Virus record (IMG/VR): IMGVR_UViG_2579778622_000013
Span: 1 to 41,088 of that record
DNA: 41,088 bases
Strand: one strand, 5' to 3'
DNA from: a virus
Lineage: Duplodnaviria > Heunggongvirae > Uroviricota > Caudoviricetes
Shown here piece by piece: positions 5,290 to 35,042 of the stretch. Each line of letters starts with the position of its first letter. Position 1 is the first letter of the stretch. The notes below the pieces were generated by a model. The model was not told the DNA's origin, searched no databases, and was given only the letters and a program-made list of their open reading frames with translations. The position numbers and the translations under genes were made by a program.

Positions 5290-5304
5290 TTACCCAAAAG
5301 GTAA
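5290..5304. promoter_or_regulatory. Operator-like palindrome TTACCCAAAAGGTAA at head of early-left operon (OL-like position)
   Basis: Perfect TTACC-N5-GGTAA dyad between repressor-gene terminator and first early-left gene. Confidence 0.5.
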
Positions 5305-5313
5305 TCTAACAGG

Positions 5314-5341
5314 CAATAAAAAAGCCGCCATGAGGCGGCTT
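5314..5341 (-). terminator. Rho-independent terminator downstream of repressor gene
   Basis: 8-bp GC-rich stem AAGCCGCC/GGCGGCTT followed by a T-run on the minus strand. Confidence 0.6.
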
Positions 5342-5361
5342 ACTTGCTGAAAACTATAGTT

Positions 5362-5946
5362 TTATTGTTTGTTTTTTTCGTTCTGGTTGATGACAAATTC
5401 AATGTAACTTTCGATCTTTGCTTTCTCGGTTTCGGGTAACAATGCGTAGCGCGAGCGGTCATAGTTGATAGTCGCAGGGTCGTGCGGGTGAATCAGTAAT
5501 TCATAGCCATGACGCCCGAATGCGGATGCAACATTCTCCAGGGTGGAAATGGAAACGCTGACCTCATTGTTTAACAGGCGGCTGATTGTCACCTGGGCGA
5601 CGCCGGATGCGCGGTGAAGTTTTCCCTGCGTTGAAAGGTCGCGGCTTTCGCTCATCCAGCGTTCCAGGTTGTGAGCCGCCAGCTGACCAATGTCGCTTGG
5701 GCCGACAGGCTGAAAACCTTCCTGAGAAAGCGAGCGATCGATATCAAGCCAGTTACGGGGTTTATTGGCGGCAGCTTCAATTTTTCGTGCAACCTGGTCG
5801 CCGATAACCTTCTTGCCAAGAGCCCAGCGGTTTACCAGATTTGCCTGAGTTCCAAGTTTTTCTGCCATCCGCGTCTGAACACCATTGAATTCACGGTCGA
5901 TCAAGTCGTTGAGATTTTGCCTGCGGACGTCCTGGATACTTTTCAT
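5362..5946 (-). CDS. Prophage repressor (CI-like), tandem HTH, no LexA-type S24 autocleavage domain
   Basis: 194 aa; divergent from cro-like gene with three operators between; HTH-like segments near residues 25-60 and 110-150; no Ala-Gly / GDSM / Lys motifs. Confidence 0.65.
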   Translation of the reverse strand: MKSIQDVRRQNLNDLIDREFNGVQTRMAEKLGTQANLVNRWALGKKVIGDQVARKIEAAANKPRNWLDIDRSLSQEGFQPVGPSDIGQLAAHNLERWMSESRDLSTQGKLHRASGVAQVTISRLLNNEVSVSISTLENVASAFGRHGYELLIHPHDPATINYDRSRYALLPETEKAKIESYIEFVINQNEKNKQ

Positions 5947-6001
5947 TTTCTGGAAAATCGCCTCATATATGAATCAGTAGATGATTCAATTTAAAGCAAT
6001 A

Positions 6002-6064
6002 TTACCCAACAGGTAAATGCACCTCATGGGTAACTATCCTTGATTTTTGTTACCTTATGGGTGA
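6002..6064. promoter_or_regulatory. Tripartite operator region between repressor and cro-like genes
   Basis: Three 15-bp dyads: 6002-6016 TTACCCAACAGGTAA, 6019-6033 GCACCTCATGGGTAA, 6050-6064 TTACCTTATGGGTGA. Confidence 0.65.
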
Positions 6065-6100
6065 ATATTTATTATCTGAAATAAATATCAGGCAATAGCT

Positions 6101-6331
6101 ATGAGCGATAACGGACATTTCGATTTCAAAAAGCACTGGCTTGCACTTACTCCGGATGAGCGTGAAGCCTTCGCACAGGAAGCCGGAACGACGAGTCACT
6201 ATATCCAGACTCACTTAACAGGTAAGCGCAAAATGCCAGGTAAAGTATTGATGAATGGGCTTTTTAAAGCCTGTAAAACAAGACAATGGCTGCGCTCAAA
6301 AGCAGAACTGGCATACTTCTTCTACTCATGA
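6101..6331 (+). CDS. Cro/CII-like HTH regulator
   Basis: 76 aa, divergent from repressor; HTH-like EREAFAQEAGTTSHYIQTHLTGKR. Confidence 0.55.
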   Translation: MSDNGHFDFKKHWLALTPDEREAFAQEAGTTSHYIQTHLTGKRKMPGKVLMNGLFKACKTRQWLRSKAELAYFFYS

Positions 6332-6353
6332 TATCCAGCTACAACCCTCTGTA

Positions 6354-6376
6354 GACCGCCACCCGGCGGTCTTTTC
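6354..6376 (+). terminator. Rho-independent terminator after cro-like gene
   Basis: Stem GACCGCC/GGCGGTC, loop ACCC, followed by TTTT. Confidence 0.55.
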
Positions 6377-6386
6377 ATATCTATTC

Positions 6387-6401
6387 GTACCTCAAAGGTA
6401 A
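6387..6401. promoter_or_regulatory. Operator-like palindrome GTACCTCAAAGGTAA
   Basis: TTACC-N5-GGTAA family site directly after the terminator, upstream of the zinc-finger gene. Confidence 0.4.
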
Positions 6402-6481
6402 TAAATAACCAAATCTGGTTGATATTTTTTTTGTGTCAGCACAAAATAACCGTAATCCCAATACTAATAGCAGGGCTTACC

Positions 6482-6682
6482 ATGGAAATCATTACACGTA
6501 TTGATGCCGCAAAGCGCGGACTTAAACGCTACTACACCGGAAAAACATGTAAGCACGGACATGACAGTGAACGCTGGGTTTACAACGGACACTGTGTTGA
6601 GTGCACCATGGAATCAAACCGTCGTATCAGGGCAGAGATTAAGCAGATCATGATTAATTCCTCCCCACAACATTCAAGCTGA
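6482..6682 (+). CDS. Small Cys/His zinc-finger-like protein
   Basis: 66 aa from ATG 6482; motif C-KHGH...C-VEC; ORF-track start at 6419 judged less likely. Confidence 0.4.
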   Translation: MEIITRIDAAKRGLKRYYTGKTCKHGHDSERWVYNGHCVECTMESNRRIRAEIKQIMINSSPQHSS

Positions 6683-6697
6683 TAGCGGAGATTAATC

Positions 6698-7513
6698 ATG
6701 AGCAGACATGCAACAGATTGGGCCTGGGAGACAGATCCAGGTAGCTCGTCATTAAAGCTCATACTGCTCTCGATGGCTGACAGAGCCGATGAATATAACC
6801 TCTGCTACCCCAGCATAGAACGCCTCGTTAAAGACACTTGCCTGAATAAAAAAACCGTGCAGGCCGGACTTATATCGCTCATGAAAATGGGGCTTATTTC
6901 AGATACCGGAGAGAGAAAGGGAGCGACGAAAAGAGTGCGGGTTTTCTCTCTTAATATAACCAAAAACGGGAACATTAAAGGCAACCGGGAAGGGGGTAAT
7001 GAACCCGAAAACGGTAATGTTACCGAAAACGGGAATATACCCAAAAACGGGATGTTGAATGATCCCAAAAACGGGATGTTGAATGATCCCAAAAACGGGA
7101 TCCAGAACCAGTCATATAACCAGTCATTTAACCAAGAGAGGGAGAGCAGGACAAAAACCGGGGATTCTGTTCCTCATGACCCCGGCGCAAACAACGCCGT
7201 GATGAATAACTTTGTTCCTCCTGGTGGGATAGGGCAATTAGGAAAATTTGTCATGCATGAACAATGGCAGCCATCAGATGACTTTCTTCGGAAAAGCTCA
7301 TTGCAGGGAATCTACCTGGACAGTCTGCCAACGGCACAGGAACTTGCAGAGTTCAGAATTTACTGGATGGCTGAGGGTAAGGCATACCATCAGGCACAGT
7401 GGGAGCAGAAGCTGGCAAGGCGGCTGCAGATTAGCAGACAGAAGCAATCAACATTACCTGATAACAACGTTCCGCACTGGAACAGCCCTGAAGCATGGGA
7501 GGATTTCTTGTGA
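6698..7513 (+). CDS. Replication initiator, lambda O-like (N-terminal DNA-binding domain, repeat-encoded linker, C-terminal domain)
   Basis: 271 aa; internal DNA iterons translate to NG-rich repeats (PKNGMLND x2); position directly upstream of P-like gene. Confidence 0.75.
   Translation: MSRHATDWAWETDPGSSSLKLILLSMADRADEYNLCYPSIERLVKDTCLNKKTVQAGLISLMKMGLISDTGERKGATKRVRVFSLNITKNGNIKGNREGGNEPENGNVTENGNIPKNGMLNDPKNGMLNDPKNGIQNQSYNQSFNQERESRTKTGDSVPHDPGANNAVMNNFVPPGGIGQLGKFVMHEQWQPSDDFLRKSSLQGIYLDSLPTAQELAEFRIYWMAEGKAYHQAQWEQKLARRLQISRQKQSTLPDNNVPHWNSPEAWEDFL
6957..7109. repeat. Replication origin iterons inside the O-like gene
   Basis: Six copies of ~CCNAAAACGGGA at 18-24 bp spacing, including two identical 24-mers CCCAAAAACGGGATGTTGAATGAT. 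Confidence 0.7.
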
Positions 7514-8295
7514 ACAACGTTTTTACCGCGATACAAAACCGTGACGGAGAAGCCCTTTCTCGCATGTCAGGTTATGAGCATCAGTACGTCAACAATGACA
7601 ATGTGGTTAACATGTCAGCAGAGAGGCTTGTTGATGCCCTTTTCAAACAGCTGAAACAACTGTTTCCGGCGGCAGTGGTAACCAACCTGAAGACGCCAGA
7701 GCAGGAAGTAGCTGCAAAACAGCAGTGGATTGCTGCGTTTGCCGAAGGGGGGATCCGAACCCGTGAACAGGTTTCTGCTGGTATGCGCCACGCCCGCGCC
7801 AGTGAATCTCCGTTCTGGCCGTCGCCTGGGCAATTCATCAAGTGGTGTAAAGACAGCAAGATGGTTCTTGGCGTCACCATTGACGATGTGATGGCGGAGT
7901 TTCACCGGTACAGCAAGGAAAAAAGTTTATATCCTGGTGGTCCCGAAAGATTCCCGTGGCGACATCCGGTTATGTACTGGGTCGTATGTGATACCCGCCG
8001 TGCAATGTATCAGCGCCAGCTTAGCGAGATTGAGGTTGAGAAACACGCGCGCAGGCTGCTCGATGATTGGGCGAAAAAGGTGGCTTCCGGACAGCAGATA
8101 CCCGATCCGGTGATCAGCATACAGGCAAAGCCAGAACCCATGAGTACACCTCCGGACACAGGGAGAGACGTTTACCATCCACCAGGGCGAAGTTTCGGGT
8201 GCATGCCTAACGCCGCCACCCTAGGGGGAATAACACCGGCGCAGTGGCTGATGGAGGAATACAGGCGGGGAAAGGCGGCAGGATTTATCAAGTAA
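7510..8295 (+). CDS. Replication protein P-like helicase loader
   Basis: Segment GGIRTREQVSAGMRHARASESPFWPSPGQFIKWC closely parallels lambda P NGITTMEQVNAGMRVARRQNRPFLPSPGQFVAWC (recalled from memory); GTG 7510 after GGAGGA RBS, overlapping O stop. Confidence 0.85.
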   Translation: MNNVFTAIQNRDGEALSRMSGYEHQYVNNDNVVNMSAERLVDALFKQLKQLFPAAVVTNLKTPEQEVAAKQQWIAAFAEGGIRTREQVSAGMRHARASESPFWPSPGQFIKWCKDSKMVLGVTIDDVMAEFHRYSKEKSLYPGGPERFPWRHPVMYWVVCDTRRAMYQRQLSEIEVEKHARRLLDDWAKKVASGQQIPDPVISIQAKPEPMSTPPDTGRDVYHPPGRSFGCMPNAATLGGITPAQWLMEEYRRGKAAGFIK

Positions 8296-8301
8296 TACCA
8301 G

Positions 8302-8320
8302 CGCGATAGCGCATTTTTTT
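8302..8320 (+). terminator. Weak intrinsic terminator after P-like gene
   Basis: GCGC-GATA-GCGC hairpin followed by ATTTTTTT. Confidence 0.35.
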
Positions 8321-8332
8321 ACGTCTCAATGA

Positions 8333-8409
8333 TTACCTGATGGGTAATAAAATATCCTAAAATCTATTGATTTCGTGTCTTATGTGGTTTTTAATTACCT
8401 CAGGGGTAA
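8333..8409. promoter_or_regulatory. Two operator-like palindromes upstream of nin-like operon
   Basis: 8333-8347 TTACCTGATGGGTAA and 8395-8409 TTACCTCAGGGGTAA; the second overlaps the RBS of the 8413 gene. Confidence 0.45.
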
Positions 8410-8412
8410 ATC

Positions 8413-8757
8413 ATGAGAAAACAGATACAGGCTCTTGGTCGACTCAAAACAGGCCAGATGAACAAAACAGAATCTGCGTATTGCCAGCACCTTGAGCTGC
8501 GTAAACGTGCAGGAGAAATCGTCTGGTATCGATTTGAGGGTATCAAGCTGCGGTTAGCTGACAACACGTTCTATACGCCCGATTTTGCTGTGATGCTCGC
8601 CACCGGCGAGATGGAACTGCACGAAGTGAAAGGTTTCTGGACCGACGATGCCAGGGTGAAAACCAAAGTCGCCGCAGATCAGTATCCGTTCCGAATCATC
8701 GGGGTAACGGTTAAGCCAAAGAAAGCAGGTGGTGGCTGGAACATCGAAGAGTTCTGA
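8413..8757 (+). CDS. DUF1064-like small phage protein, possible PD-(D/E)XK-type nuclease
   Basis: 114 aa; motif YTPDF ... ELHEVKG compatible with D..E.K nuclease core; nin-region position. Confidence 0.45.
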   Translation: MRKQIQALGRLKTGQMNKTESAYCQHLELRKRAGEIVWYRFEGIKLRLADNTFYTPDFAVMLATGEMELHEVKGFWTDDARVKTKVAADQYPFRIIGVTVKPKKAGGGWNIEEF

Positions 8758-8818
8758 ATCGACGATCTTTTTAGTTATCAATGTAATCAATAAGTTATGT
8801 GGATAAGCGAGGGTAAAG

Positions 8819-9298
8819 ATGGAAAGTAATATCAAAGGGTTAGTTTCCGCCGGGCATGAGATGGCTTCGGAACTGAAAGCAGAATGTGGTGCCGTTGATA
8901 TGCGTAGTGTGGCAAAGCTGATCAGCGATTTGGCAATGCAACTGGAAGTGCAACTGGTGCGTGCTAATGCGCTGGCGGCGGAGAATGCGGCAATGCATGA
9001 AACTATTGAAGCCGTTCGGAGTGTTGCGGATAACTCCAGTGGAATTGCCGGATGGCATTTGAATGGCGATATCGCTACATGGGAAGAGATTCTTCATGAA
9101 ATTAACGATATCGAAACCACAGCCACCGACGCTTTCTTGGCTGAAGTACGGGCGCAGGCGTTTAATGACCTTTGCTCGGTGTTCGTTAAGGACGCGACGG
9201 TTGCCGGGCTGGACGATGGCGACATCGTTACGGTGAAAGAAGCGACGGACGCCCTGCTGCATTGTGCGGAGCAGCTTCGCAAAGGAGGCAACCAGTGA
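8819..9298 (+). CDS. Hypothetical protein
   Basis: 159-aa ORF with RBS; no recognisable motif. Confidence 0.5.
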   Translation: MESNIKGLVSAGHEMASELKAECGAVDMRSVAKLISDLAMQLEVQLVRANALAAENAAMHETIEAVRSVADNSSGIAGWHLNGDIATWEEILHEINDIETTATDAFLAEVRAQAFNDLCSVFVKDATVAGLDDGDIVTVKEATDALLHCAEQLRKGGNQ

Positions 9299-9981: not shown

Positions 9982-9982
9982 G

Positions 9983-10738: not shown

Positions 10739-10748
10739 GGACTAACAA

Positions 10749-11291: not shown

Positions 11292-11413
11292 TGAACAAGT
11301 GCAACGCTCTGCTTTATGCCATGGTGATTGGTTTCGGCCTGGCTGCTGGTATCCGGGTTTATATTACCTGGGAGTCATTAATCAATCTGGCGTGGAGTGC
11401 GATTCGTGGCTAA
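11291..11413 (+). CDS. Small hydrophobic membrane peptide (40 aa)
   Basis: ATG 11291 seven nt after AGGAGGTGA RBS; MNKCNALLYAMVIGFGLAAGIRVYITW...; not in ORF track (under 60 aa). Confidence 0.35.
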   Translation: MNKCNALLYAMVIGFGLAAGIRVYITWESLINLAWSAIRG

Positions 11414-11744
11414 ATCCCCCGCAGAACGCAAAGCCGCGCAGCGCGCTCGGCAGTCCGCCGCCGGTGAGCGCAAAATTGAACTGGTGCTGGATAAGCAGGA
11501 GCAGGAAATGCTGGAGCGTAACTGTGCCACGCGTCGCCCCGGGCGTGCGCCTTACGAATTTGGGGAGTATATAGCGTTACTGATCCGCCAGGATGATGCA
11601 CGCGTGCGCGGGCGTATAAAATCGATTAGCAGAAAACGTTGCGGTAAGTGCGGCGAGAAAGTTCCCGTTAATTCATGCCCGTGTAATGGTGACTCGCAAT
11701 GCTGGGTGACTAAAGGCTGGCATGAAACTAAATTAATAGTGTGA
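11397..11744 (+). CDS. Cys-rich putative regulatory protein, last gene before the late operon
   Basis: 115 aa; C-terminal RKRCGKCGEKVPVNSCPCNGDSQC zinc-finger-like cluster; start codon uncertain. Confidence 0.4.
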   Translation: MRFVAKSPAERKAAQRARQSAAGERKIELVLDKQEQEMLERNCATRRPGRAPYEFGEYIALLIRQDDARVRGRIKSISRKRCGKCGEKVPVNSCPCNGDSQCWVTKGWHETKLIV

Positions 11745-11793
11745 CATGTCACGAGTAGATTATGCATGATGAATTTGATGGGTTTTGAATACT

Positions 11794-11819
11794 GCCGCCA
11801 ACTATGGCGGCTTTATTTT
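11794..11819 (+). terminator. Rho-independent terminator preceding terminase operon
   Basis: 7-bp stem GCCGCCA/TGGCGGC, loop ACTA, then TTTATTTT. Confidence 0.6.
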
Positions 11820-11830
11820 GCATGGTACTA

Positions 11831-11845
11831 TTACCACAACGGTAA
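11831..11845. promoter_or_regulatory. Operator-like palindrome TTACCACAACGGTAA upstream of terminase small subunit
   Basis: Perfect dyad 18 nt upstream of terS RBS. Confidence 0.45.
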
Positions 11846-11862
11846 CAATTACCAGGGTGGTT

Positions 11863-12459
11863 ATGATGCCTGCTGAACCTAAAACCTATAAACGCAAATC
11901 AACGCAATTTAAGCCACTAACCGCAATGCAGGAGGCTTATTGCCAGTCATACATCAAAACGCCTGAAAACCAGACTCAGGCAGCGATTAACGCAGGATTC
12001 TCCCCAAATACAGCGGCAGTTAAAGCCAGTGTCATGATGCGCGATGAACGCATTCAAAAACGGATTGCCGAGTTGATGGAGGAGCGCAACAAACGAATGC
12101 GCGTCAGTGCCGATTACGTTCTCATGCGCCTGGTGGAGATCGACCAGATGGACGTGATTGATATCCTCAATGACGATGGGAGCCTTAAGCCAATCCGCGA
12201 GTGGCCGAAAATCTGGCGCACTACGCTTAGTGGCTTTGATCTGTCATCGACCATCATGAACATGAACGAGGATTCGATAGAGACAATCCTCAAAAAAATT
12301 AAATGGCCTGACAAGGTGAAGAACCTCGAACTGATTGGTAAGCACGTCGACGTCAATGCATTCAAAGAACGCCTGGATGTTAATGTGAATGTGACAATTG
12401 CTGATCGCATAGCGGCAGCCAGGAAGCGACTCAAAGAACGTCAGGATGGTAATCAGTGA
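11863..12459 (+). CDS. Terminase small subunit
   Basis: HTH-type segment AINAGFSPNTAAVKASVMMRD typical of terminase small subunits; overlaps terL start (GTGA). Confidence 0.75.
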   Translation: MMPAEPKTYKRKSTQFKPLTAMQEAYCQSYIKTPENQTQAAINAGFSPNTAAVKASVMMRDERIQKRIAELMEERNKRMRVSADYVLMRLVEIDQMDVIDILNDDGSLKPIREWPKIWRTTLSGFDLSSTIMNMNEDSIETILKKIKWPDKVKNLELIGKHVDVNAFKERLDVNVNVTIADRIAAARKRLKERQDGNQ

Positions 12460-13931
12460 CAGATACAGCGTTATCTCCTGAAGAGCAGTTGATCGAGGAT
12501 ATTGCAGGGTTCACTCACGATCCGCTTGGCTATGCCCTCTATGCGTTCCCGTGGGGGGAAGAGGGGACTGAACTGGCACATGCTACCGGCCCACGTCAGT
12601 GGCAGGCTGATGCGTTCCGAGAGATACGTGATCACCTGCAGAATCCAGAGACGCGCTATCAGCCGCTTATGCTGGCACGCGCTTCTGGTCACGGTATTGG
12701 TAAATCCGCATTCATCTCAATGCTGATCAACTGGGGCATGTCCACTTGCGAGGATTGTAAGGTCGTGGTGACCGCCAACACCGACAACCAGCTACGAACG
12801 AAGACCTGGCCGGAAATTATCAAGTGGTCGAACCTTGCTATCACGAAAGACTGGTTTACCTGTACCGCTACTGCGATGTACAGCAATGATCCTGGGCACG
12901 ACAAGCGGTGGCGAGCTGACGCAATCCCCTGGTCTGAGCACAACACTGAGGCATTCGCCGGACTACACAACGAGCGCAAACGCATCATCGTGGTATTCGA
13001 TGAAGCGTCGAACATTGCGGATCTGGTGTGGGAAGTTGCTGAGGGTGCGCTTACGGACGAAGACACTGAGATTATCTGGGTGGCGTTCGGAAACCCTACA
13101 CGTAATACCGGGCGTTTTCGCGAATGTTTCCGCAAATACAAACACCGCTGGAAAACTGCGCAGATTGACAGCCGGACGGTGGAAGGTACTAACAAACAGC
13201 AGTTGCAGAAATGGGTTGATGACTACGGGGAAGACAGCGACTTCGTTAAAATCCGTGTGCGCGGCATATTCCCTGATGCATCTGAATTGCAGTTTATCCC
13301 TACCGGTCTTACTGATGAGGCAATGAAACGGGTGGTAACCGCTGCGCAGGTGGCACATGCTCCGGTGATAATCGGTGTTGACCCGGCATATTCAGGCGTT
13401 GATGACGCGGTGATATACCTGCGGCAGGGGTTGCATAGTAAGGTGCTATGGACTGGCAACAAGACCACTGACGATCTGATTATGGCGAAGCGTATCGCTG
13501 ACTTTGAAGACCAGTATCAGGCTGACGCGGTGTTCATCGACTTCGGTTACGGAACCGGTCTGAAGTCAATCGGTGACGGGTGGGGGCGCACATGGCAACT
13601 TGTTCCGTTCGGTGGTGCGTCAACTGACCCTCAGATGCTCAACAAGCGCGGGGAGATGTTCAACTCATGCAAGACATGGCTGAGGTTGGGCGGGATGCTG
13701 GATGACCAGGAAACAGCGGACGATCTGTCGGCGGCAGAGTACAAAGTTCGCGTGGACGGTAAAATCGTTATCGAACCGAAGGAAGATATCAAAGAACGAC
13801 TTGGGCGTTCGCCTGGTAAAGGCGATGCGCTACTGCTGACGTTTGCTTTCCCGGTGTCAAAGCGCCTGCGACTTCCCGGGCAGCAGAACCAGCAAGGCAA
13901 GGCGCTTACCGAGTACGATCCATATGCTTAG
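12456..13931 (+). CDS. Terminase large subunit
   Basis: 491 aa; Walker A-like GHGIGKS, Walker B-like VVFDEAS, C-terminal nuclease-like region; position between terS and portal. Confidence 0.9.
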   Translation: MTDTALSPEEQLIEDIAGFTHDPLGYALYAFPWGEEGTELAHATGPRQWQADAFREIRDHLQNPETRYQPLMLARASGHGIGKSAFISMLINWGMSTCEDCKVVVTANTDNQLRTKTWPEIIKWSNLAITKDWFTCTATAMYSNDPGHDKRWRADAIPWSEHNTEAFAGLHNERKRIIVVFDEASNIADLVWEVAEGALTDEDTEIIWVAFGNPTRNTGRFRECFRKYKHRWKTAQIDSRTVEGTNKQQLQKWVDDYGEDSDFVKIRVRGIFPDASELQFIPTGLTDEAMKRVVTAAQVAHAPVIIGVDPAYSGVDDAVIYLRQGLHSKVLWTGNKTTDDLIMAKRIADFEDQYQADAVFIDFGYGTGLKSIGDGWGRTWQLVPFGGASTDPQMLNKRGEMFNSCKTWLRLGGMLDDQETADDLSAAEYKVRVDGKIVIEPKEDIKERLGRSPGKGDALLLTFAFPVSKRLRLPGQQNQQGKALTEYDPYA

Positions 13932-14746
13932 TCTTTATTTTTATCCTCGAAACCTGATAATCCAGATAGAACACCAAAGTTATTAAAAACGTTTGGCTTA
14001 CCAGATTTTAATCCGGATAAGTTGTGTTGCTCCAAAAAGTTGCTAATTGTTTGGCCGTTGCCAAGTGCAAGGCTTTTTATTTGAGATTTTTCAGGGTATT
14101 TGAGTTTGTATTCGTCGAAATCATTTTGGAGAGTCTTATATGCCTCATTCATTCTTCCAAGAGTTTCCGATATCTCTTTTAATGAATGATTTAGAGTTGC
14201 TAACTGAGCACTGGCGGATCTCAATTCGTCATCTTTAGCTTTCAACTCGGCAGTCAATTCCCCCATACTATTCTTTGATCGAATAATCTCTTCTTTCATC
14301 TCTTGGATGTCTTTTTCCGCGCCAGTCTTAACTTTGTCGTATGTAACATCTTTTTTAGCCAATAACCTCTGCAGTCTTGTTTCACGCTGGATTTTTCTTG
14401 CCTTCAGGTGATTTTCGATTGAGTCATTATTATCAAGAGGCTTTGCTTGCCATACGTTAATGATATTGTTTACCCATGGTAATAGGCAGCAGATAGCAAT
14501 TACAGATAAGCATGGATAAAACATAACAGTTTTCCATGTGCTGTTATCTGAGATATATGAAATTTTATCTATTATGTTTGATTTGCTAAAAAATAGATAA
14601 AGAATTGATTTCCAGTTGAAGGCGCACCAGGACATAACAAAAGCACCAAGCACAGGGTTTTTGGCTCGATTCACGGCAGTATTGGCAGTAGATAAAAACA
14701 GCTCTTTGAACGATTCAAACATGCTAATTACCTTGAAGTTTTTCAT
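13928..14746 (-). CDS. Membrane-anchored coiled-coil moron protein, function unknown
   Basis: 272 aa from ATG 14746; two hydrophobic helices then long coiled coil; AT-rich; stop overlaps terL stop (convergent). Confidence 0.55.
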   Translation of the reverse strand: MKNFKVISMFESFKELFLSTANTAVNRAKNPVLGAFVMSWCAFNWKSILYLFFSKSNIIDKISYISDNSTWKTVMFYPCLSVIAICCLLPWVNNIINVWQAKPLDNNDSIENHLKARKIQRETRLQRLLAKKDVTYDKVKTGAEKDIQEMKEEIIRSKNSMGELTAELKAKDDELRSASAQLATLNHSLKEISETLGRMNEAYKTLQNDFDEYKLKYPEKSQIKSLALGNGQTISNFLEQHNLSGLKSGKPNVFNNFGVLSGLSGFEDKNKD

Positions 14747-14750
14747 GATT

Positions 14751-14765
14751 ATACCTTTAAGGTAA
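14751..14765. promoter_or_regulatory. Operator-like palindrome ATACCTTTAAGGTAA at moron gene start
   Basis: Dyad immediately 5' of ATG 14746 on the minus strand, overlapping the RBS and a TATAAT-like hexamer. Confidence 0.4.
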
Positions 14766-14781
14766 TTTGCGGTCATCAAGC

Positions 14782-14805
14782 AAAAAAATGCCCGGCGAAC
14801 CGGGC
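14782..14805 (-). terminator. Rho-independent terminator (minus strand)
   Basis: Stem GCCCGG/CCGGGC, loop CGAA, followed by a T-run on the minus strand. Confidence 0.5.
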
Positions 14806-14876
14806 GAACTGGAAGCAATGAGTTATGCCTTCCGTGGCTGTACTGGTTTACAGCATGAAGTCATCGCAATGGCGTC

Positions 14877-14925
14877 CTGCTGTAAAAAGGGCGGTGATAG
14901 TCCTTCAAGGGAAACTATCACCGCC
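14877..14925 (-). terminator. 12-bp perfect stem-loop with T-run downstream of the tRNA
   Basis: GGCGGTGATAGT / ACTATCACCGCC with 12-nt loop, followed on the minus strand by CCTTTTTAC. Confidence 0.5.
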
Positions 14926-14968
14926 AAGCACCTGGAACTTCTGGCATCACGGTCCTTAGGCGTGATTC

Positions 14969-15045
14969 TGGCGTGGCATGCAGGATTCGAACCTGCGACC
15001 AACCGCTTAGAAGTCGGTTGCTCTGTCCAACTGAGCTAATGCCAC
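14969..15045 (-). tRNA. tRNA-Arg (anticodon UCU), phage-encoded argU-like
   Basis: 77 nt with CCA; cloverleaf GTGGCAT/ATGCCAC acceptor stem, D-arm GCTC..GAGC, anticodon loop CTTCTAA, T-arm GCAGG TTCGAAT CCTGC; similar but not identical to E. coli argU as recalled. Confidence 0.85.
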
Positions 15046-15367: not shown

Positions 15368-15382
15368 TTACCTGAAAGGTAA
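15368..15382. promoter_or_regulatory. Operator-like palindrome TTACCTGAAAGGTAA upstream of portal operon
   Basis: Perfect dyad ~90 nt upstream of the 15473 gene. Confidence 0.45.
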
Positions 15383-15472
15383 TAATTCGTGCGTTAAATG
15401 TCAACCATCTACGATAAATAAATCATATGTGGTTAAATTGGTAATAATTTAATTGCGTACGGAGTCATTGAT

Positions 15473-28684: not shown

Positions 28685-28689
28685 ATTAA

Positions 28690-31164
28690 ATGAGACAGGA
28701 ATGTATACAAGCGGTCCAGCAGGCGGCGCAGCGCACGTTAACGGCGCGAGAAATACAGAACATTGAAGACCGCATTTATCGAAATATGCGCTCTATTGCT
28801 CGTGATGACCCGATGTCGTGGAGACAACTTTCCGAATCAGAGCGGCTATATCGTGCAGCACAATTGGCATCTGAAGAATTACAGCGAGAAGCGGCATTAA
28901 AGAAACGTCGTGTGGCCCTCACTATAGCCGCACGTCAGAGATTGGATAAATTTATCAATAGCTATCAAGGGGCTGATGGGAAACTTGGCGCTCTTAACCG
29001 TACTATTGCTTTTAATGCAGACGGTAAATCGAATTTCCTCTCTGTTGAATCCAGAACAAAAGCCACCCGTGATTATGCATTGAGTCAATTGCAGGAGGCA
29101 TTCGAAGCAGTTGATCCTCGCTTTTTTGGTCTGTTTGAAGATGAAGCTGGCGTACGTGACCTGGTATATGAAATGCGGGGGCAAAATACTGGCAATGCTA
29201 AAGCAAGAAAAGGTGCTAAGGCGTGGAGAGAAGTTACAGAGCTGCTGCGCCGCCGGTTTAATGATGCTGGTGGGGACATTGGCTATCTCGAAAACTGGGG
29301 GATCCCTCAACATCATTCTATGGAAAAGGTTGGGGCGGTATCAAAAGATAAATGGGTTAGCGATGTTATAGGTAAGCTGGATCGCAAATATTATACCCGA
29401 GCCGATGGACAACTGATGAACGATGCCGAGTTGTCTGCATTTCTTGGAGAGGCTTATAACACGATCGCTACTGGTGGGTTGAATAAGCTTACTGATACCG
29501 GAATGCGAATTTCCGGCGCACGTGCTAACCGTGGTAATGCATCACGACAGATACATTTCAAAGATGCAGATTCCTATCTTCAATATCAGCAACTTTATGG
29601 CGATCGCTCTCTATGGGAAATCATGGTCGGTCACCTGGAAGGTATCAGTAAAGATATTGCACTGGTGGAAACATATGGCCCAAACCCCGATCATGTTTTC
29701 CGCTCTCTTCTTGATCAGGTGAAGGCAGAAACGGCAACAGCTAACCCGAGTAAAACCGGTAAAGTCGAGCGGCTGGCGAACAACACAGAGAATCTGTACA
29801 ACTTTATTTCCGGAAAGACACAGCCTGTAGCGAATCCGCACATCGCGCGATGGTCTGACAATATCCGCAACTGGCTGGTTGCCAGCAGACTCGGATCCGC
29901 GTTGCTGTCATCGTTCTCTGATCTTGGAACCATGTATCTGTCTGCGAAGGTTACCAACCTTCCAATGAACCAGTTATTCCGCAACCAGCTTGAAGCTATG
30001 GACCCAACGAACCGTACAGAACTTGCGCGGGCGCGCCGCGCTGGTCTGGCGATGGAATCTCTACTTGGCAGCGTTAACCGCTGGGCGATGGATAATATGG
30101 GGCCGTCTGTGTCTCGTTGGGCTGCAACGGCGGTAATGCGTGCCAGTGGGCTTACAGCATGGTCAGATGCGCACAAGCGCGCCTATGGCGTAACCATGAT
30201 GGGAAGCTTGGGAGAAGTAGTGTCACGGACACCAGACCTTCGTAGCCTCGATGATTCTGATTTTCGTATCCTGAAAAGCAAAGGGATTACTGACACAGAC
30301 TGGAGCGTATGGAAGCTGGCGCAACAGGAGGACTGGGGGAACGGCAATAATACGATGCTGACACCGGAAAGCATTATGCGTATCCCTGATTCAGCAGTTA
30401 AACATCTTGGTGAGCCTGAACGCGTGAAATTTGAGGCAATGCGTAAACTGCTCGGTGCCGTAACTGAAGAAGTTGATATGGCTGTTATTACACCGGGAGC
30501 ACGTGAGCAACTGATAACCGGTTCTGGTATTCAGCGTGGAACATGGAAAGGTGAATTAACGAGAAGTGTTTTCCTGTTTAAATCGTTCCCTATCTCGGTG
30601 GTTATGCGTCACTGGTCACGCGCTATGGGTATGCCGTCTGCTGGTGGGCGTGCGGCATATATTGCGACGTTTATTGCCAGTACGACCATTCTTGGCGCTT
30701 TGTCGCAGCAACTTAACGACCTTGCGTCTGGTCGTAATCCTCGCGAGATGACAGGAGAAGATGCTGCTAAATTTTGGCTTGGTGCTCTACTGAAAGGTGG
30801 TGGTCTTGGCCTTTACGGTGACTTTTTATTGTCAGATCACACTAGGTACGGAAGCGGCGCGCTGGCGTCGATGCTTGGCCCGGTAGCTGGTCTGGTTGAT
30901 GACGTAGTGAAGATTGCTCAGGGCATACCGTTAAATGCTGTGGAAGGGAAGAGTGAGCAGACTGGTGGTGATCTGGTGAAGCTGGGGAAAGGTTTGATGC
31001 CTGGTGCGAATCTCTGGTACTTGAAGGCGGCTCTCGATCACATGATCTTTAACCAGATGCAGGAGTATTTTTCACCAGGCTATTTGCGTAAAATGGAGCA
31101 ACGTTCGAAGAAAGAGTTTAACCAGACATACTGGTGGCGACCACAGGATGTCACTCCGCAATAA
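28690..31164 (+). CDS. Internal virion / ejection protein (gp16 C-part-like by position)
   Basis: 824 aa. Confidence 0.55.
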   Translation: MRQECIQAVQQAAQRTLTAREIQNIEDRIYRNMRSIARDDPMSWRQLSESERLYRAAQLASEELQREAALKKRRVALTIAARQRLDKFINSYQGADGKLGALNRTIAFNADGKSNFLSVESRTKATRDYALSQLQEAFEAVDPRFFGLFEDEAGVRDLVYEMRGQNTGNAKARKGAKAWREVTELLRRRFNDAGGDIGYLENWGIPQHHSMEKVGAVSKDKWVSDVIGKLDRKYYTRADGQLMNDAELSAFLGEAYNTIATGGLNKLTDTGMRISGARANRGNASRQIHFKDADSYLQYQQLYGDRSLWEIMVGHLEGISKDIALVETYGPNPDHVFRSLLDQVKAETATANPSKTGKVERLANNTENLYNFISGKTQPVANPHIARWSDNIRNWLVASRLGSALLSSFSDLGTMYLSAKVTNLPMNQLFRNQLEAMDPTNRTELARARRAGLAMESLLGSVNRWAMDNMGPSVSRWAATAVMRASGLTAWSDAHKRAYGVTMMGSLGEVVSRTPDLRSLDDSDFRILKSKGITDTDWSVWKLAQQEDWGNGNNTMLTPESIMRIPDSAVKHLGEPERVKFEAMRKLLGAVTEEVDMAVITPGAREQLITGSGIQRGTWKGELTRSVFLFKSFPISVVMRHWSRAMGMPSAGGRAAYIATFIASTTILGALSQQLNDLASGRNPREMTGEDAAKFWLGALLKGGGLGLYGDFLLSDHTRYGSGALASMLGPVAGLVDDVVKIAQGIPLNAVEGKSEQTGGDLVKLGKGLMPGANLWYLKAALDHMIFNQMQEYFSPGYLRKMEQRSKKEFNQTYWWRPQDVTPQ

Positions 31165-31175
31165 AAGGAGATATG

Positions 31176-31298
31176 ATGGTTCAAATAACTTTTATTGTAC
31201 TAATATGTGCAGCGTTTTTATGCTATTCATACATTTTGATAAAAATGGGTTTCAATTGGAATCTCTGTTGCGTGCAGCGGCATGGTTCGGCTTTGTAG
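31176..31298 (+). CDS. Small hydrophobic peptide (40 aa)
   Basis: ATG 31176 five nt after AAGGAG; MVQITFIVLICAAFLCYSYILIK...; AT-rich; different frame from ORF-track entry 31148..31336. Confidence 0.35.
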   Translation: MVQITFIVLICAAFLCYSYILIKMGFNWNLCCVQRHGSAL

Positions 31299-31383
31299 TA
31301 TTCGGAATTGTATTGTTCGGAAGAATAATAAAATAACTAGTTAATTTGTGGATTGGTGCTGTTTTTCCATGATAGGGGTAATT

Positions 31384-31764
31384 ATGAGAAAAGTATTTTT
31401 GATTTTTGGATTTATGCTTCTCGTTGGATGCCAGTCAGCTGCACAGTTTGAAAGAAATATGCTTACGTGGCGCGGGCAGAGTATAGACGCAATGGTTCAG
31501 CAGTGGGGGTATCCTCAGGGAGAGCTTACATCTCCAGATGGAAACAGAGTGTATGTTTACTCAAGCTCTGGTAGTTATAACGTACCACAAACCACAACGT
31601 ATAATACTACGTCTAATCTAATTGGTAATACTATATATTCAAACACATACGCAACAACTGATGGCGGTTATACACTCCATTTCAGTTGCTCTGTTTACGT
31701 TGAGTTTGGTGCTGATAAGATTATTAAAAATGTTACATGGCGCGGTAATAATTGCGTTGCGTGA
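31384..31764 (+). CDS. Moron lipoprotein (signal peptide plus lipobox LLVGC)
   Basis: MRKVFLIFGFMLLVGCQS...; Ser/Thr/Tyr/Asn-rich mature part; AT-rich. Confidence 0.6.
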   Translation: MRKVFLIFGFMLLVGCQSAAQFERNMLTWRGQSIDAMVQQWGYPQGELTSPDGNRVYVYSSSGSYNVPQTTTYNTTSNLIGNTIYSNTYATTDGGYTLHFSCSVYVEFGADKIIKNVTWRGNNCVA

Positions 31765-31772
31765 CATGTCAC

Positions 31773-31797
31773 AGGCCGCTTTCGCGGCCTTGTTTTT
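31773..31797 (+). terminator. Rho-independent terminator after lipoprotein gene
   Basis: Stem AGGCCGC/GCGGCCT, loop TTTC, then TGTTTTT. Confidence 0.6.
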
Positions 31798-31957
31798 AAC
31801 GAATGCCACCGTCACCCGGGCGGGAATCCGCAGAACGCCCACCGCAGCGGGAGCCGTCAGCGGCAGTATCGCTGTCGTGCTGACAACGACCGGCAAAGGC
31901 CTGAGTTGAAGCTACCAGAGACAACAAAACGAACAGTGCAGCAAATGCTTTTTTCAT
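31796..31957 (-). CDS. Small secreted Cys-containing peptide (53 aa)
   Basis: MKKAFAALFVLLSLVASTQAFA signal-peptide-like N-terminus; weak RBS. Confidence 0.3.
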   Translation of the reverse strand: MKKAFAALFVLLSLVASTQAFAGRCQHDSDTAADGSRCGGRSADSRPGDGGIR

Positions 31958-32027
31958 TGTGAAATTTCCATCTATAAGCCACCTCAATGTGGCGTCAATG
32001 AGTGTAGCACTGACTTTTGTTTCGTCC

Positions 32028-32050
32028 ACAAAAAAGCCCGCGCTGCGGGC
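32028..32050 (-). terminator. Rho-independent terminator after the 210-aa moron gene
   Basis: Stem AGCCCGC/GCGGGCT followed by a T-run on the minus strand. Confidence 0.6.
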
Positions 32051-32055
32051 TTCTA

Positions 32056-32688
32056 TTAATGCAGTTTATCTTTGCTTATAACCAGTAGTCTGTGGGTATG
32101 CACATCTTTATCACTGCCCCAACAGAAATCAGCCCACTGGCTATAGAAATCATCCCATGATGCCATGAAGCTAAGAGGTCTATCTTCTTCAGAGCCATCT
32201 GAAACGTATACATTATATCCTGGGGTGTTTATAGCCCAAGAAATCATTCTTTCCCAGAATCTTCTCCCATCGATTGTTTGTTGCTCATCAGATACAACGA
32301 TCGCATATTGCTCTAGGAAGAACTGAAAAAAAATCTGAGGCAAACCATGAACAGCACGGTCATGAATAACATTAGGCGTACGCCATACCATGATCTGCGT
32401 ACATGTTCTTTTGGCTTCGACGATATCTTCCCGAAAGATTAACTTAACCGCATACACCGTTTCTGGAGTATCGCTGGTAGTAATCATTCTGTAATGATCG
32501 CCATTACAAGATTTTACAAGGCGATAACCATAAGGTGTTGTGAATCCCGGAAGAACGAAATCAACCACACCTTTCGCTAAGTAGCTTTCGGTGTGACTAG
32601 TGTTCTTCTCAGACATGTTCAGTTTTCTATCGAAATCTGCTTCTGGGATAATGTATGGCATCGCTTTTCTTGTTGTATTTGTTCTCAT
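32056..32688 (-). CDS. Hypothetical cytoplasmic moron protein (210 aa)
   Basis: Strong GGGAGGA RBS; AT-rich; no recognisable motif; own operator-containing upstream region. Confidence 0.6.
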   Translation of the reverse strand: MRTNTTRKAMPYIIPEADFDRKLNMSEKNTSHTESYLAKGVVDFVLPGFTTPYGYRLVKSCNGDHYRMITTSDTPETVYAVKLIFREDIVEAKRTCTQIMVWRTPNVIHDRAVHGLPQIFFQFFLEQYAIVVSDEQQTIDGRRFWERMISWAINTPGYNVYVSDGSEEDRPLSFMASWDDFYSQWADFCWGSDKDVHTHRLLVISKDKLH

Positions 32689-32747
32689 TTCGTCCTCCCA
32701 TGTTTGGCTACAGGACGCGTTTTGAAGGGAAGATTAAAAATGCTTTC

Positions 32748-32762
32748 TTACCCTTGAGGTAA
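32748..32762. promoter_or_regulatory. Operator-like palindrome TTACCCTTGAGGTAA
   Basis: Perfect dyad ~60 nt upstream of the 32688 start codon. Confidence 0.45.
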
Positions 32763-32834
32763 TAGTACGCTATTCACCCCCAGTCTGCAATCTGTACAGA
32801 ATTATTTAAAGGCACATCCCTGTGCCGCCGCCCG

Positions 32835-33545
32835 TCAGAAGAACCCTGCCTTGTCGTTGATGTACTCCGCGTGCGTCTGGATATCACGCAGGCATTTGCT
32901 CACACCGACGATGTAGCAGAACATGGTGGTCAGCTCCGCCGCCGCGCCCGATACGTCGTGCCCGTCGTCCTGTAACTGGTTCAGCAGATTCATCAGCAGT
33001 GAGTTCTCCGTCAGGCCGAGAACACCAGACGGCGAGTGAATCAGGCTGCGGTAGCCGGGCTTCAGCGGGGCGCTGTAGGTTTTGTTCTCTATCTTCATTG
33101 CCTGCATCACTGCTGACGCCGTGGCGTTGGCTACCTGGTCGGCAACCATCTTTATGCGTTCTTCCTGCGGGAGCGAGTTTTTAATGTAACTTCCGGTGCG
33201 GCGGATCTGAGGAAGAACCTCACCTGTAACCCATTTACGAAAGCGGTAGGGGATAGTGCCTGGTGTCACTGCGTCGCGGCAGCGGAGGATCAGTGTGTAG
33301 AGGCCTGACTCGGAGATGATGTTGATCTCTTTTACTCGGCTGTCAAAAATTGCACGATGTTCATGCCCTATGTTGAACATAGACCTTTCATCATCATCCA
33401 GTTTTTCAAGTGCTTGGGTGACGTTTTGGATACGCAGCGCACTACAAACGTCTTGGGCTACAAACCATGGTTGGCCATCGATAATGATGGAACGGATAGG
33501 GTTAACAGATTCAAATTTGAAGATGGCAGTTTGAGCATTAGCCAT
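32835..33545 (-). CDS. Antirepressor, Bro-N/AntA-type N-terminal domain
   Basis: N-terminus MANAQTAIFKFE..IRSIIIDGQPWFVAQDVCSALRI typical of Bro-N/AntA; ATG 33545 with GGAGA RBS. Confidence 0.75.
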   Translation of the reverse strand: MANAQTAIFKFESVNPIRSIIIDGQPWFVAQDVCSALRIQNVTQALEKLDDDERSMFNIGHEHRAIFDSRVKEINIISESGLYTLILRCRDAVTPGTIPYRFRKWVTGEVLPQIRRTGSYIKNSLPQEERIKMVADQVANATASAVMQAMKIENKTYSAPLKPGYRSLIHSPSGVLGLTENSLLMNLLNQLQDDGHDVSGAAAELTTMFCYIVGVSKCLRDIQTHAEYINDKAGFF

Positions 33546-33942
33546 GGTGGTTATCTCCACTTAGTGATTTTAATCACCACCGCAACGCCAATTACTGGTG
33601 GTGAACTGGACAAGGTTGGCGTACCGGCCTAAGTGGTACCGGCGTCCTTTCGGACCCCTGCCCAGCCCACCATAATTCGGATATAGCTGTGCTTAACGCA
33701 TAAAAAAACCACGTCTGGCGTGGTATGCGCCACTTAGTAACTCGGGACGCCAATCCCGGCACTGGATTTTGCCAGTACCCGATTACTATGGCACAAGAGG
33801 AGTGCGATGTAAATTTACCGCAAAGGTAATGATAAACGCGTAGAAATATCAAAATCAACCGTATTTGGTTGATTGCGTTTAACGCTTGATCACCTGAAAG
33901 CAAGATATTACCTTTAAGGTAATGTTATTGTGAGGAAAAGCA
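33546..33942. promoter_or_regulatory. Divergent control region and long antirepressor leader
   Basis: Dyads at 33815-33829 and 33908-33922; minus-strand intrinsic terminator 33702-33724; palindrome GTGATTTTAATCAC at 33564-33577; three mutually complementary 9-mers. Confidence 0.45.
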
Positions 33943-34671
33943 ATGGAAGTTTTCTGGATAGTTGTTGGTGTGGTTGCGGTGATTATTTACGTTATCAACC
34001 AGAACAAGACTAAGATCTCTGATCGTACGGTCGTTAATCATAACAAAACGATAAAGACCGAAGATGGGGAGATAACGATTAATCGTACACAGGTGATAGA
34101 ACACACCTCTACTCAGTTTCAAAAAACTGGAGGTAATGCGCCTAATATTTCCGCACCTCCTGCTTATGATAGTGCGGTAATCCAGACATATTATAAACAG
34201 CAGGAGTTAGCAAAAGAGAGGCAACTGATTCAGCCAAAGCCATTTACAGCAGAGCTTCCACCTGGAGTGTCAACGCGTCCGGCATATCATGGAAGATTCC
34301 CTGGTGATGACACATCGTCTCAGTCACCTAAAAAAGCACCTCAGGCAGTATCAGAGCCAGCAAGAATACCTTCTGTATCGCCGCCAAAAGAAGAATCAGC
34401 TAACAGAGTTTCAAGTGGTAGCAAGCAGTGCTTGCGATGCAGAATAAATCTTCCATATGAAAAATTCAGGAAATCGTCAAAAAATCCAGATGGATTGACT
34501 AAGTGGTGTGCAAGGTGTCTCGATGGCCCAAAGAATACACGCCATATGAAGTGGTGCCCAATTTGTAATGTCCGCAGAAAACGAACAAGCTTTTACCCTA
34601 ATAATCAAAATGCGGACGGCTTAATGGCATGGTGCAAAACGTGCTGGGATGAGCACAAAGCGAAACGATAG
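33943..34671 (+). CDS. Membrane-anchored protein with tandem CxxC zinc-ribbon repeats
   Basis: N-terminal TM helix VFWIVVGVVAVIIYVI; two repeats C-x2-C..DGL..WC-x2-C at the C-terminus. Confidence 0.6.
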   Translation: MEVFWIVVGVVAVIIYVINQNKTKISDRTVVNHNKTIKTEDGEITINRTQVIEHTSTQFQKTGGNAPNISAPPAYDSAVIQTYYKQQELAKERQLIQPKPFTAELPPGVSTRPAYHGRFPGDDTSSQSPKKAPQAVSEPARIPSVSPPKEESANRVSSGSKQCLRCRINLPYEKFRKSSKNPDGLTKWCARCLDGPKNTRHMKWCPICNVRRKRTSFYPNNQNADGLMAWCKTCWDEHKAKR

Positions 34672-34694
34672 GCCGCTCTTGCGGCCTTTAAATT
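34671..34694 (+). terminator. Rho-independent terminator
   Basis: GGCCGC-TCTT-GCGGCC then TTTAAATTT. Confidence 0.55.
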
Positions 34695-34951
34695 TACCGG
34701 GTTTGTTTTCGTAATTGTTCGGCACAATAGTCGAGATGTGTTTGCAGATCCCGCATAGACATCTGTGAGCTGGTGACGTAGTTAATCAGTGCAGTCAGTT
34801 CGGCAAGTGGGCCATCGACATTAAATCCATCCTTATCGAGATCCCGGAGTAATTTCATCAAGTGCGATCCCTCCACCAGTGACCTGACGCCTCCCGGCGT
34901 GTGAATCCTTTCGGTAAATCCGTCTTCCAGTGGATAGTGATACCGCTGCAT
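34694..34951 (-). CDS. Small protein homologous to the antirepressor C-terminal domain; LexA-boxed (candidate SOS antirepressor)
   Basis: 85 aa from ATG 34951 with GGAGA RBS; TPGGVRSLVEGSHLMKLLRDLDKDGFNVDGPLAELT..MRDLQTHLDY parallels the Ant C-terminus SPSGVLGLTENSLLMNLLNQLQDDGHDVSGAAAELT..LRDIQTHAEY. Confidence 0.6.
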   Translation of the reverse strand: MQRYHYPLEDGFTERIHTPGGVRSLVEGSHLMKLLRDLDKDGFNVDGPLAELTALINYVTSSQMSMRDLQTHLDYCAEQLRKQTR

Positions 34952-34972
34952 CTTATCTTCTCCATGCAATAA

Positions 34973-34988
34973 CTGTATATTTATACAG
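34973..34988. promoter_or_regulatory. LexA (SOS) box CTGTATATTTATACAG
   Basis: Matches CTGT-N8-ACAG with AT-rich spacer; 22 nt upstream of the 34951 start codon. Confidence 0.65.
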
Positions 34989-35027
34989 TATCAAATAATT
35001 TGTTTGCTATCCAGCACGTTTTGCAAA

Positions 35028-35042
35028 TCACCTGAAAGGTAA
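35028..35042. promoter_or_regulatory. Operator-like palindrome TCACCTGAAAGGTAA
   Basis: Dyad in the divergent region between the small SOS gene and the tailspike. Confidence 0.4.

Follow-up and report, generated by a model that had tools for sequence, protein, structure and literature searches.

A palindrome, TTACCNNNNNGGTAA, recurs in the non-coding DNA of the viral sequence IMGVR_UViG_2579778622_000013 (the whole 41,088-nt stretch, hereafter the window), which raises the question of what protein reads it and what it controls. In sequence, the window represents a phiV10/epsilon15-like (Uetakevirus) prophage; where it aligns with phiv142-3, PAS61, and phiV10, identity is 96-98%. Its insertion site was found to be the 3′ end of guaA in Escherichia coli, and yfgI and yfgH lie on the right flank. 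We consider it probable, at roughly 0.85, that the palindromes constitute the dispersed operator set of the prophage repressor, Rep, and are relieved by a small antirepressor, Ant, which is itself controlled by LexA. Binding of Rep to the sites is argued from homology, from the annotation of epsilon15, and from an invariant recognition helix, and the promoters considered below come from consensus scans.

Number and placement of the palindromes

Exact matches to the palindrome numbered 10 in the window, against 0.02 expected from dinucleotide-preserving shuffles, and none of 100 shuffles reached that count. On a gene map built from phiV10 homology plus family scans, non-coding DNA comprised 7.4% of the window and contained all 10 exact copies (P ~5e-12). 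A mismatch-tolerant scan added six copies with one mismatch (6050, 6387, 11849, 14751, 35028, and 38127) and one with two mismatches (6019). Using a 17-bp matrix trained on the 10 exact sites alone, and compared with 100 random Markov sequences in which the maximum score was 17.1, we obtained scores of 17.6-19.0 for 35028, 14751, and 6387, a score of 13.7 (within the random range) for 6050 and 38127, and scores below 9 for 6019 and 11849. Thirteen sites are statistically secure, namely the 10 exact copies together with 6387, 14751, and 35028, and a chance origin of the set is excluded. The weak sites 6019, 6050, and 11849 were accepted only because relatives have a site at the equal offset. 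The consensus extended to 17 bp, A-TTACC-N5-GGTAA-T, with A/T at its centre.

One further copy, TTACCTCTGCGGTAG at 38127..38141, was rejected as an operator, since it falls within a coding sequence of the lysis cassette (the p27 membrane-protein gene) and is not conserved in relatives; about 0.6 chance matches are expected per genome, and this is probably one of them.

The first-pass annotation of this DNA had reported 14 sites by eye, all of which were recovered (nine exact, four with one mismatch at 6050, 6387, 14751, and 35028, and one with two at 6019), but the list was incomplete, lacking the exact copy at 5228 and the one-mismatch copy at 11849. Its observation of three sites between the repressor and cro genes (6002, 6019, and 6050) and of none in the long structural genes was borne out, and the check that it had proposed, a matrix scan against random sequence with a comparison of coding and non-coding DNA, placed the motif far above shuffles. 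The statement that the palindrome precedes nearly every operon was roughly right, although no copy was found ahead of the lysis cassette in the window, where relatives have one (24704 in epsilon15), and the site before the integrase gene lies just outside the window. Specifically, this last site, a one-mismatch operator with the sequence TTACCTTAAAGGTAT, was found upstream of the integrase start at positions 545-559 of a locus from E. coli EC5654 (L008), 42-56 nt before window position 1. Its offset is unchanged in phiV10, epsilon15, Enterobacter phage Tyrion, and Klebsiella phage BUCT711.

The repressor and its antirepressor

The window Rep is 100% identical to phiV10 p40, and in a phmmer search against the Protein Data Bank it matched the Rep of phage SPC32H (5D50 chain A, E = 4e-42) over residues 1-190 of 194. 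In a Pfam scan it matched only HTH_3, HTH_26, LacI, YdaS_toxin, and HTH_31, with no S24 peptidase domain. By these sequence characters, Rep is classed as a non-cleavable repressor of the SPC32H/epsilon15 type, and because it has no S24 autocleavage domain, induction would proceed by an antirepressor. The candidate, ant, is 87% identical at the protein level to SPC32H Ant and is divergent from the tailspike gene, in the gene order seen in SPC32H. The predicted -35 of ant (TGGATA, 35013-35008, minus strand) was conserved in six phages, and a perfect LexA box, CTGTATATTTATACAG, covers the predicted -10. Counted from the predicted start of ant transcription, the palindrome at 35028 has its centre at about -57, so that ant may be under the joint control of LexA and Rep.

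The assignment of the palindrome to a repressor has a precedent in the annotation of epsilon15. The GenBank record deposited by the epsilon15 authors (AY150271.2) and its RefSeq copy hold seven features described as 'protein_bind, repressor, lysogeny', the sequences of which are the motif considered here. One each is located before terS, gp3, the tail fibre gene, and gene 43, and three lie left of the repressor gene, so that the phage-wide spread of the site, late genes included, is already recognised for the family. In the phiV10-type records that we examined, the operators were unmarked. The earlier interpretation of the three-site arrangement and the dispersed copies as classic repressor operators is in agreement with the epsilon15 annotation and with the homology of Rep to that of SPC32H.

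The biochemistry of SPC32H Rep is available to us through secondary sources, which describe a tetramer on palindromic sites, with N-terminal domains paired across dimers, that is disassembled by Ant. As summarised there, the protein has an N-terminal DNA-binding domain, a middle dimerisation domain, and a C-terminal domain for tetramerisation and Ant binding, with the two domain pairs ~100 A apart. A 2023 structural paper states that the repression mechanism 'has not been extensively characterized'. In the ZX5 paper, a repressor identical to the window Rep was overexpressed and no operator was mapped.

Based on Rep homology, the lack of an S24 domain, the position of ant, the LexA box, and the palindrome positions, all of which are testable defining features, the window system is placed within the epsilon15/SPC32H Rep-Ant immunity. 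It resembles the SPC32H/epsilon15 switch in having a Rep homologue, an Ant homologue, a LexA box, and the motif in the same slots. It differs in the sequence of Rep, which is of the phiV10 type and only ~42% identical to those of the Salmonella phages, yet accompanies the same motif. Additionally, it has extra sites at accessory genes (14751, 32748, 33815, and 33908) and is without the pre-lysis site.

Conservation of sites and recognition helix

Among relatives, we found 14 palindromes with at most one mismatch in phiV10 (0.65 expected), 15 in epsilon15 (0.61 expected), and 10 exact copies in SPC32H, and the motif was also over-represented in Tyrion and BUCT711. The slots occupied in common were a pair left of rep, three sites between rep and the cro-like gene, one site after the cro-like gene, a pair before the DUF1064/resolvase gene, two sites before terS, and one each before gp3, between ant and the tailspike gene, and before int. 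Prophages of six further species carried the motif as well (Superficieibacter, Erwinia dacicola, K. pneumoniae, two Citrobacter species, and Scandinavium), at offsets of about -70, -87, and -117 from the rep start, in a pair past the rep stop, and in a second pair ~2.3-3.4 kb upstream. In alignments the half-sites were conserved, while the N5 and the flanks diverged.

The Reps of the motif-bearing phages and prophages were only 41-78% identical, and identity between the E. coli-type and the Salmonella/Klebsiella-type proteins was only 42-45%. In an alignment of five Reps, the N- and C-terminal blocks were conserved, and the recognition-helix stretch NLVNRW..G.K.IG...AR.IE was invariant in all five; the Scandinavium Rep differed from it by a single substitution (TLVNRW). 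Scanning IMG/VR with the Rep alignment returned 80 loci, in every one of which Rep was 100% identical. Distant homologues of the N-terminal domain with another helix (Paraburkholderia, Hydrogenovibrio, and Thiomicrospira) had no match to the motif and no clear alternative palindrome either; the missing motif is weakly suggestive of Rep being the reader of the palindrome. The operator and the recognition helix appear frozen genus-wide in phages of hosts that include Escherichia, Salmonella, Klebsiella, Enterobacter, and Citrobacter, with Rep elsewhere ~42% identical, likely because at least 15 dispersed sites cannot co-evolve with the protein.

Predicted operators and their predicted promoters

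The positions of the predicted operators, promoters, and associated genes are given in Table 1. Where a sigma-70 promoter could be predicted, the operator overlaps its -10/+1, its spacer, or the edge of its -35; of the promoter predictions we used individual conserved calls only.

Table 1. Predicted operators and promoters, with the genes and RNAs nearest to them, in window coordinates.
Feature	Position	Strand	Description
Predicted operator OL1	5228..5242		Exact; first base is the last T of the PL -10; spans +1; conserved in 12 genomes
Predicted PL (leftward)	-35 TTGACA 5270-5265; -10 AATTAT 5247-5242	-	10/12 consensus matches
Predicted operator OL2	5290..5304		Exact; 19 nt upstream of PL -35
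rep, prophage repressor	5362..5946	-	194 amino acids
Predicted operator OR1	6002..6016		Exact; 70 nt from rep start codon, offset kept in relatives
Predicted operator OR2	6019..6033		Degenerate (GCACC...GGTAA, 2 mismatches); exact site at same offset (-86/-87) in epsilon15-type relatives
Predicted PR (rightward)	TTGTTA 6047-6052; TATTAT 6070-6075	+	
Predicted operator OR3	6050..6064		1 mismatch (GGTGA); within PR spacer; 31 bp from OR2
cro-like gene	6101..6331	+	76 amino acids; PHROG 35 'transcriptional repressor'
Predicted operator	6387..6401		1 mismatch (GTACC); after terminator following cro-like gene; 17 nt upstream of a predicted -35
Predicted operator, upstream member of second 62-bp pair	8333..8347		Exact; 19 nt upstream of -35 TTGATT 8367-8372
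Predicted operator, downstream member of second pair	8395..8409		Exact; begins on last T of -10 TTTAAT 8390-8395
Predicted operator	11831..11845		Exact; after terminator 11794-11811; begins on last T of possible extended -10 TGgTACTAT; just before terS
Weak predicted operator	11849..11863		1 mismatch (GGTTA); 18 bp from 11831; directly before likely terS ATG 11864
Accessory gene	13928-14722		264 amino acids; PHROG 4780; downstream of site 14751 promoter
Predicted operator	14751..14765		1 mismatch; over spacer and -10 TATAAT (14753-14748) of predicted leftward promoter, 10/12 matches
tRNA-Arg (anticodon TCT)	14969-15045	-	ARAGORN and Rfam; strong hairpin follows at 14925-14890
Predicted operator	15368..15382		Exact; overlaps -10 TACCTT of predicted leftward promoter (-35 TTGACA, 17-nt spacer) facing tRNA-Arg and accessory gene
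210-amino-acid gene	32056-32688		PHROG 1349; served by predicted site 32748 promoter
Predicted operator	32748..32762		Exact; begins on last T of -10 of predicted leftward promoter (TTGCAG, 17 nt, TACTAT)
Bro-N domain gene, antirepressor-type	32835-33560	-	Module 32835..33778 downstream of operator 33815
C4 antisense RNA	33594-33677	-	Rfam 66 bits
isrK Hfq-binding RNA	33702-33778	-	Rfam 63.5 bits
Predicted operator	33815..33829		Exact; abuts -35 TTTACA 33813-33808 of predicted leftward promoter
Predicted operator	33908..33922		Exact, best-scoring; 20 nt ahead of ATG of 242-amino-acid gene (33943-34671); 93 bp from 33815
ant, small antirepressor	34697..34951	-	85 amino acids
LexA box	34973..34988		Perfect; over predicted ant -10 (TACTGT); kept in six-phage alignment
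Predicted operator	35028..35042		1 mismatch (TCACC); between divergent ant and tailspike genes

The clearest recurring arrangement was found at PL and at the DUF1064 promoter, which share a module composed of an operator, 19 nt, CTATTGA, 17 nt, the -10, and a second operator. At PL, OL1 and OL2 are 62 bp apart from centre to centre, and at the DUF1064 promoter the downstream operator ends 3 nt ahead of the ATG at 8413. Both paired modules aligned in six phages without indels between the operators, except that the distance in BUCT711 is 63 bp, and pair spacing was 61-63 bp in 12 of 12 genomes. Moving rightward from the immunity region, the cro-like protein is 100% identical to phiV10 p41, and the operator at 6387 stands ahead of a promoter predicted for the replication genes (TTGATA 6419, CAAAAT 6442-6447), and phiV10, Tyrion, and BUCT711 each have a counterpart there.

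At terS, the epsilon15 equivalent of site 11831 is annotated as repressor-binding, and an adjacent weak site like 11849 was also present in phiV10, epsilon15, and Tyrion. The phiV10-style terS start (TTG 11785) would enclose the terminator hairpin at 11794-11811 plus the two operators; ATG 11864 is the more likely start, and the epsilon15 terS is annotated that way. At 14751, the TATAAT of the predicted promoter is created by the single operator mismatch, and transcription is expected to begin ~19 nt before Met9, the family-supported start of the accessory gene.

The portal operon has its first start codon (ATG 15473) ~90 nt downstream of the exact site at 15368, the epsilon15 counterpart of which is annotated as repressor-binding. 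The first-pass annotation had described this site as standing before the portal operon, but the predicted promoter that it overlaps is a leftward one, toward tRNA-Arg and the accessory gene, the -35 of which (TTGAC) was kept at a fixed distance in six phages. Further to the right, sites 32748 and 11831 are alike in that each starts on the last T of a TACTAT. Site 33815 serves a predicted leftward promoter with an expected start that coincides with the 5′ end of the isrK RNA, and a second predicted promoter (TTGATT/TATCAT, 33858-33829) has this site at its -10/+1. Lastly, the epsilon15 counterpart of site 35028 is annotated as repressor-binding.

Proposed mechanism

Under the proposed mechanism, each palindrome would be read by one pair of Rep N-terminal domains, and a Rep tetramer, having two such pairs, could hold two operators at once. 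One tetramer might hold adjacent operators (17-18 bp apart, 6002/6019 and 11831/11849) or operators on the same face of the DNA at 31 bp (6019/6050), 62 bp (5228/5290 and 8333/8395), or 93 bp (33815/33908). At 10.3 bp per helical turn, these latter spacings amount to 3, 6, and 9 turns and, being whole turns, would place the paired operators on one DNA face. The conserved spacing, taken with the published tetramer, suggests bridging of the 62-bp pairs. PL and the DUF1064 promoter would then be sandwiched by operators at about +1 and -62, and elsewhere a single operator would lie across the -10/+1, the spacer, or the -35 edge. In the lysogen, Rep would directly shut the early-left, early-right, replication, terS, accessory-gene, and second-antirepressor promoters. 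Upon DNA damage, LexA would leave its box at 34973-34988, Ant would be made, and Rep would be pulled off all sites together.

Several observations weigh against this assignment of the sites to Rep. The repressor features of epsilon15 are annotations and may themselves be predictions. The motif is invariant across the family, so there is no true covariation between protein and site. The total number of promoter calls from the simple consensus scan was not above shuffles, and the promoter scan found no convincing -35 for terS, the tailspike gene, or the 242-amino-acid gene. Finally, the cro-like protein may well bind at the OR sites too, and its targets could extend to the whole set.

Alternative explanations

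This last point can be taken further, in that the cro-like protein may be the main reader of the palindromes, or of some of them (the three that separate its gene from rep, for example), with the phage-wide copies turning genes down in lytic growth and not maintaining lysogeny. The gene is in the cro position, its family is named for transcriptional repression, the layout is that of a classic OR, and lambdoid Cro proteins share operators with their repressors. However, the cro-like protein had no Pfam match or characterised homologue, the epsilon15 authors assigned the sites to the repressor, and binding by the cro-like protein would complement that of Rep and not replace it, such that we regard this as improbable. 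A phage activator is a different candidate, either the PerC-like protein (2088-2354) or the epsilon15 gp49-like regulator (11406-11744), two regulator genes without an assigned target. Several of the marked promoters (terS, tailspike, and the 242-amino-acid gene) are without a good -35, and 5290, 8333, 6387, and 35028 are upstream of a -35, a common activator position. Yet at least eight sites are over the -10/+1 or the spacer, positions from which a bound protein obstructs RNA polymerase, three copies stand between rep and cro, the epsilon15 annotation says repressor, and the strongest promoters (PL, TTGACA/AATTAT, 10/12) should need no activator. The activator that the earlier annotation had offered as its second reading is consequently not favoured, the sites overlapping core elements of predicted promoters, and we consider it very unlikely.

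The motif could instead act at the RNA level, as a hairpin that signals processing or termination or affects transcript stability, for example. The 17-mers fold into hairpins of 6-7 bp at -3.6 to -4.5 kcal/mol, better than most shuffles, and the epsilon15 record lists RNase III sites in some of the shared intergenic regions. These hairpins are weak, though, and many copies are upstream of or across predicted starts and would not be fully transcribed. Moreover, the helical phasing of pairs would be meaningless in RNA, and the stem bases are invariant across phages without compensatory changes, which argues that a protein reads the bases; a hairpin function is barely credible to us. Least of all do we credit that the repeats lack a binding function and reflect either duplication of a promoter cassette or an accident of chance or base composition. 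A longer module is indeed common to PL and the DUF1064 promoter, but 10 copies were found against 0.02 expected, only 15-17 bp are shared outside the paired modules, and from genus to genus the half-sites stay constant within diverging flanks. A dispersed operator set for Rep remains our preferred reading.

Comparison with known systems and implications

Phage P1 disperses the operators of its C1 repressor over separate operons, and its immI region (c4 RNA, icd, and ant) is under a repressor operator. The window is similar in having many scattered operators for one repressor and, in organisation only, in having a C4-family antisense RNA upstream of an antirepressor-type gene under an operator. 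The P1 C1 operators, in contrast, are asymmetric 17-mers of unrelated sequence, whereas the window sites are perfect palindromes; C1 is unrelated to the HTH_3/XRE-, YdaS-type Rep of the window, and P1 is a plasmid prophage. Similarities to lambda CI include the three operators between divergent repressor and cro(-like) genes and the separated operators that are probably bridged by an oligomer. Unlike the window Rep, which has no S24 domain and would be induced by an antirepressor, lambda CI has a C-terminal S24 autocleavage domain with an Ala-Gly cleavage site, and lambda operators are confined to the immunity region with looping over 2.4 kb, whereas the window pairs are 62 bp apart around one promoter. 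The stoperators of mycobacteriophages (L5 gp71 and Bxb1 gp69) are asymmetric, work in a single orientation, and stop elongation within transcription units. They are akin to the window sites in that one repressor has many genome-wide sites, mostly in short intergenic spaces, but the window sites have two-fold symmetry and overlap predicted promoter elements. Multiple asymmetric operators are mentioned in one paper (PMC1934351).

The finding is already known in kind and largely in detail. Our full-text literature search for the motif and for phiV10/epsilon15 operators returned no statement of the site; Kropinski 2007, Kim & Ryu 2013, and Kim 2016 were outside its reach. Within the literature read, neither the helical phasing of operator pairs nor cross-immunity throughout the genus was described. 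We think it rather unlikely that the 62-bp sandwich, the operator invariance with cross-immunity, and the leftward assignment of 15368 are both correct and undescribed.

If dispersed sites do hold operator and helix fixed in this way, members of the genus would be mutually immune, and one LexA-controlled antirepressor would free every promoter at once. Repression via tetramers that bridge phased operators (31, 62, and 93 bp) would then represent P1-like logic built from unrelated parts, and the conserved 62-bp pairs offer a simple testable model of repression by the Rep tetramer. For annotation, the operator set would indicate which prophage genes are directly silenced, including terS, the promoter of the tRNA and accessory gene, and the antirepressor module controlled by the C4 RNA. 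The integrase region was matched in 554 of 5426 complete E. coli genomes, so that about one in ten matches this part of the prophage, and the operators are also relevant to phiV10-based reporter phages and to the prediction of induction.

Additional elements of the prophage

A second conserved block, CATATGTGGTT-N5-GGTAATA(A/G)(T/A)AT, was observed at 15424-15450 and 35072-35098, with a looser copy at 8382-8399. The two full copies in the window compare with 0.22 expected at up to three mismatches. The copy before the portal operon is identical over 28 nt in six phages, with diverging flanks, and the tailspike copy ends in a good -10, TAGAAT. The Rep operators are located ~60-70 bp upstream of the block, which could be the actual rightward (late) promoter or, alternatively, the site of an activator; the copy at 15424-15450 is more likely than site 15368 to be the rightward promoter of the portal operon.

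In the antirepressor-type module, an open reading frame of 103 amino acids (33592-33903) lies over the C4 and isrK RNAs and is probably not a gene. Similarly, phiV10 p04, with its equivalent open reading frame at 14788-15039 in the window, overlaps tRNA-Arg and is probably a spurious annotation; a tRNA-Arg occupies the corresponding position in SPC32H.

At the prophage borders, the att core ATTGAGTGGGAATGATT was located at the end of guaA (positions 398-414 of the EC5654 locus). The right end of the window (40018-41088, minus strand) is host DNA that encodes the YfgI DUF5384 protein and the YfgH glycine-zipper lipoprotein and was present in 5422 of the 5426 complete E. coli genomes. A terminator with a 12-bp stem (39950-39977) follows the spanin genes.

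Finally, six iteron-like repeats with the core CCCAAAAACGGGA were found 18-24 bp apart at 6952-7104, inside the DnaT-like replication gene (6698-7513), and by analogy to lambda gene O this region is probably the replication origin.

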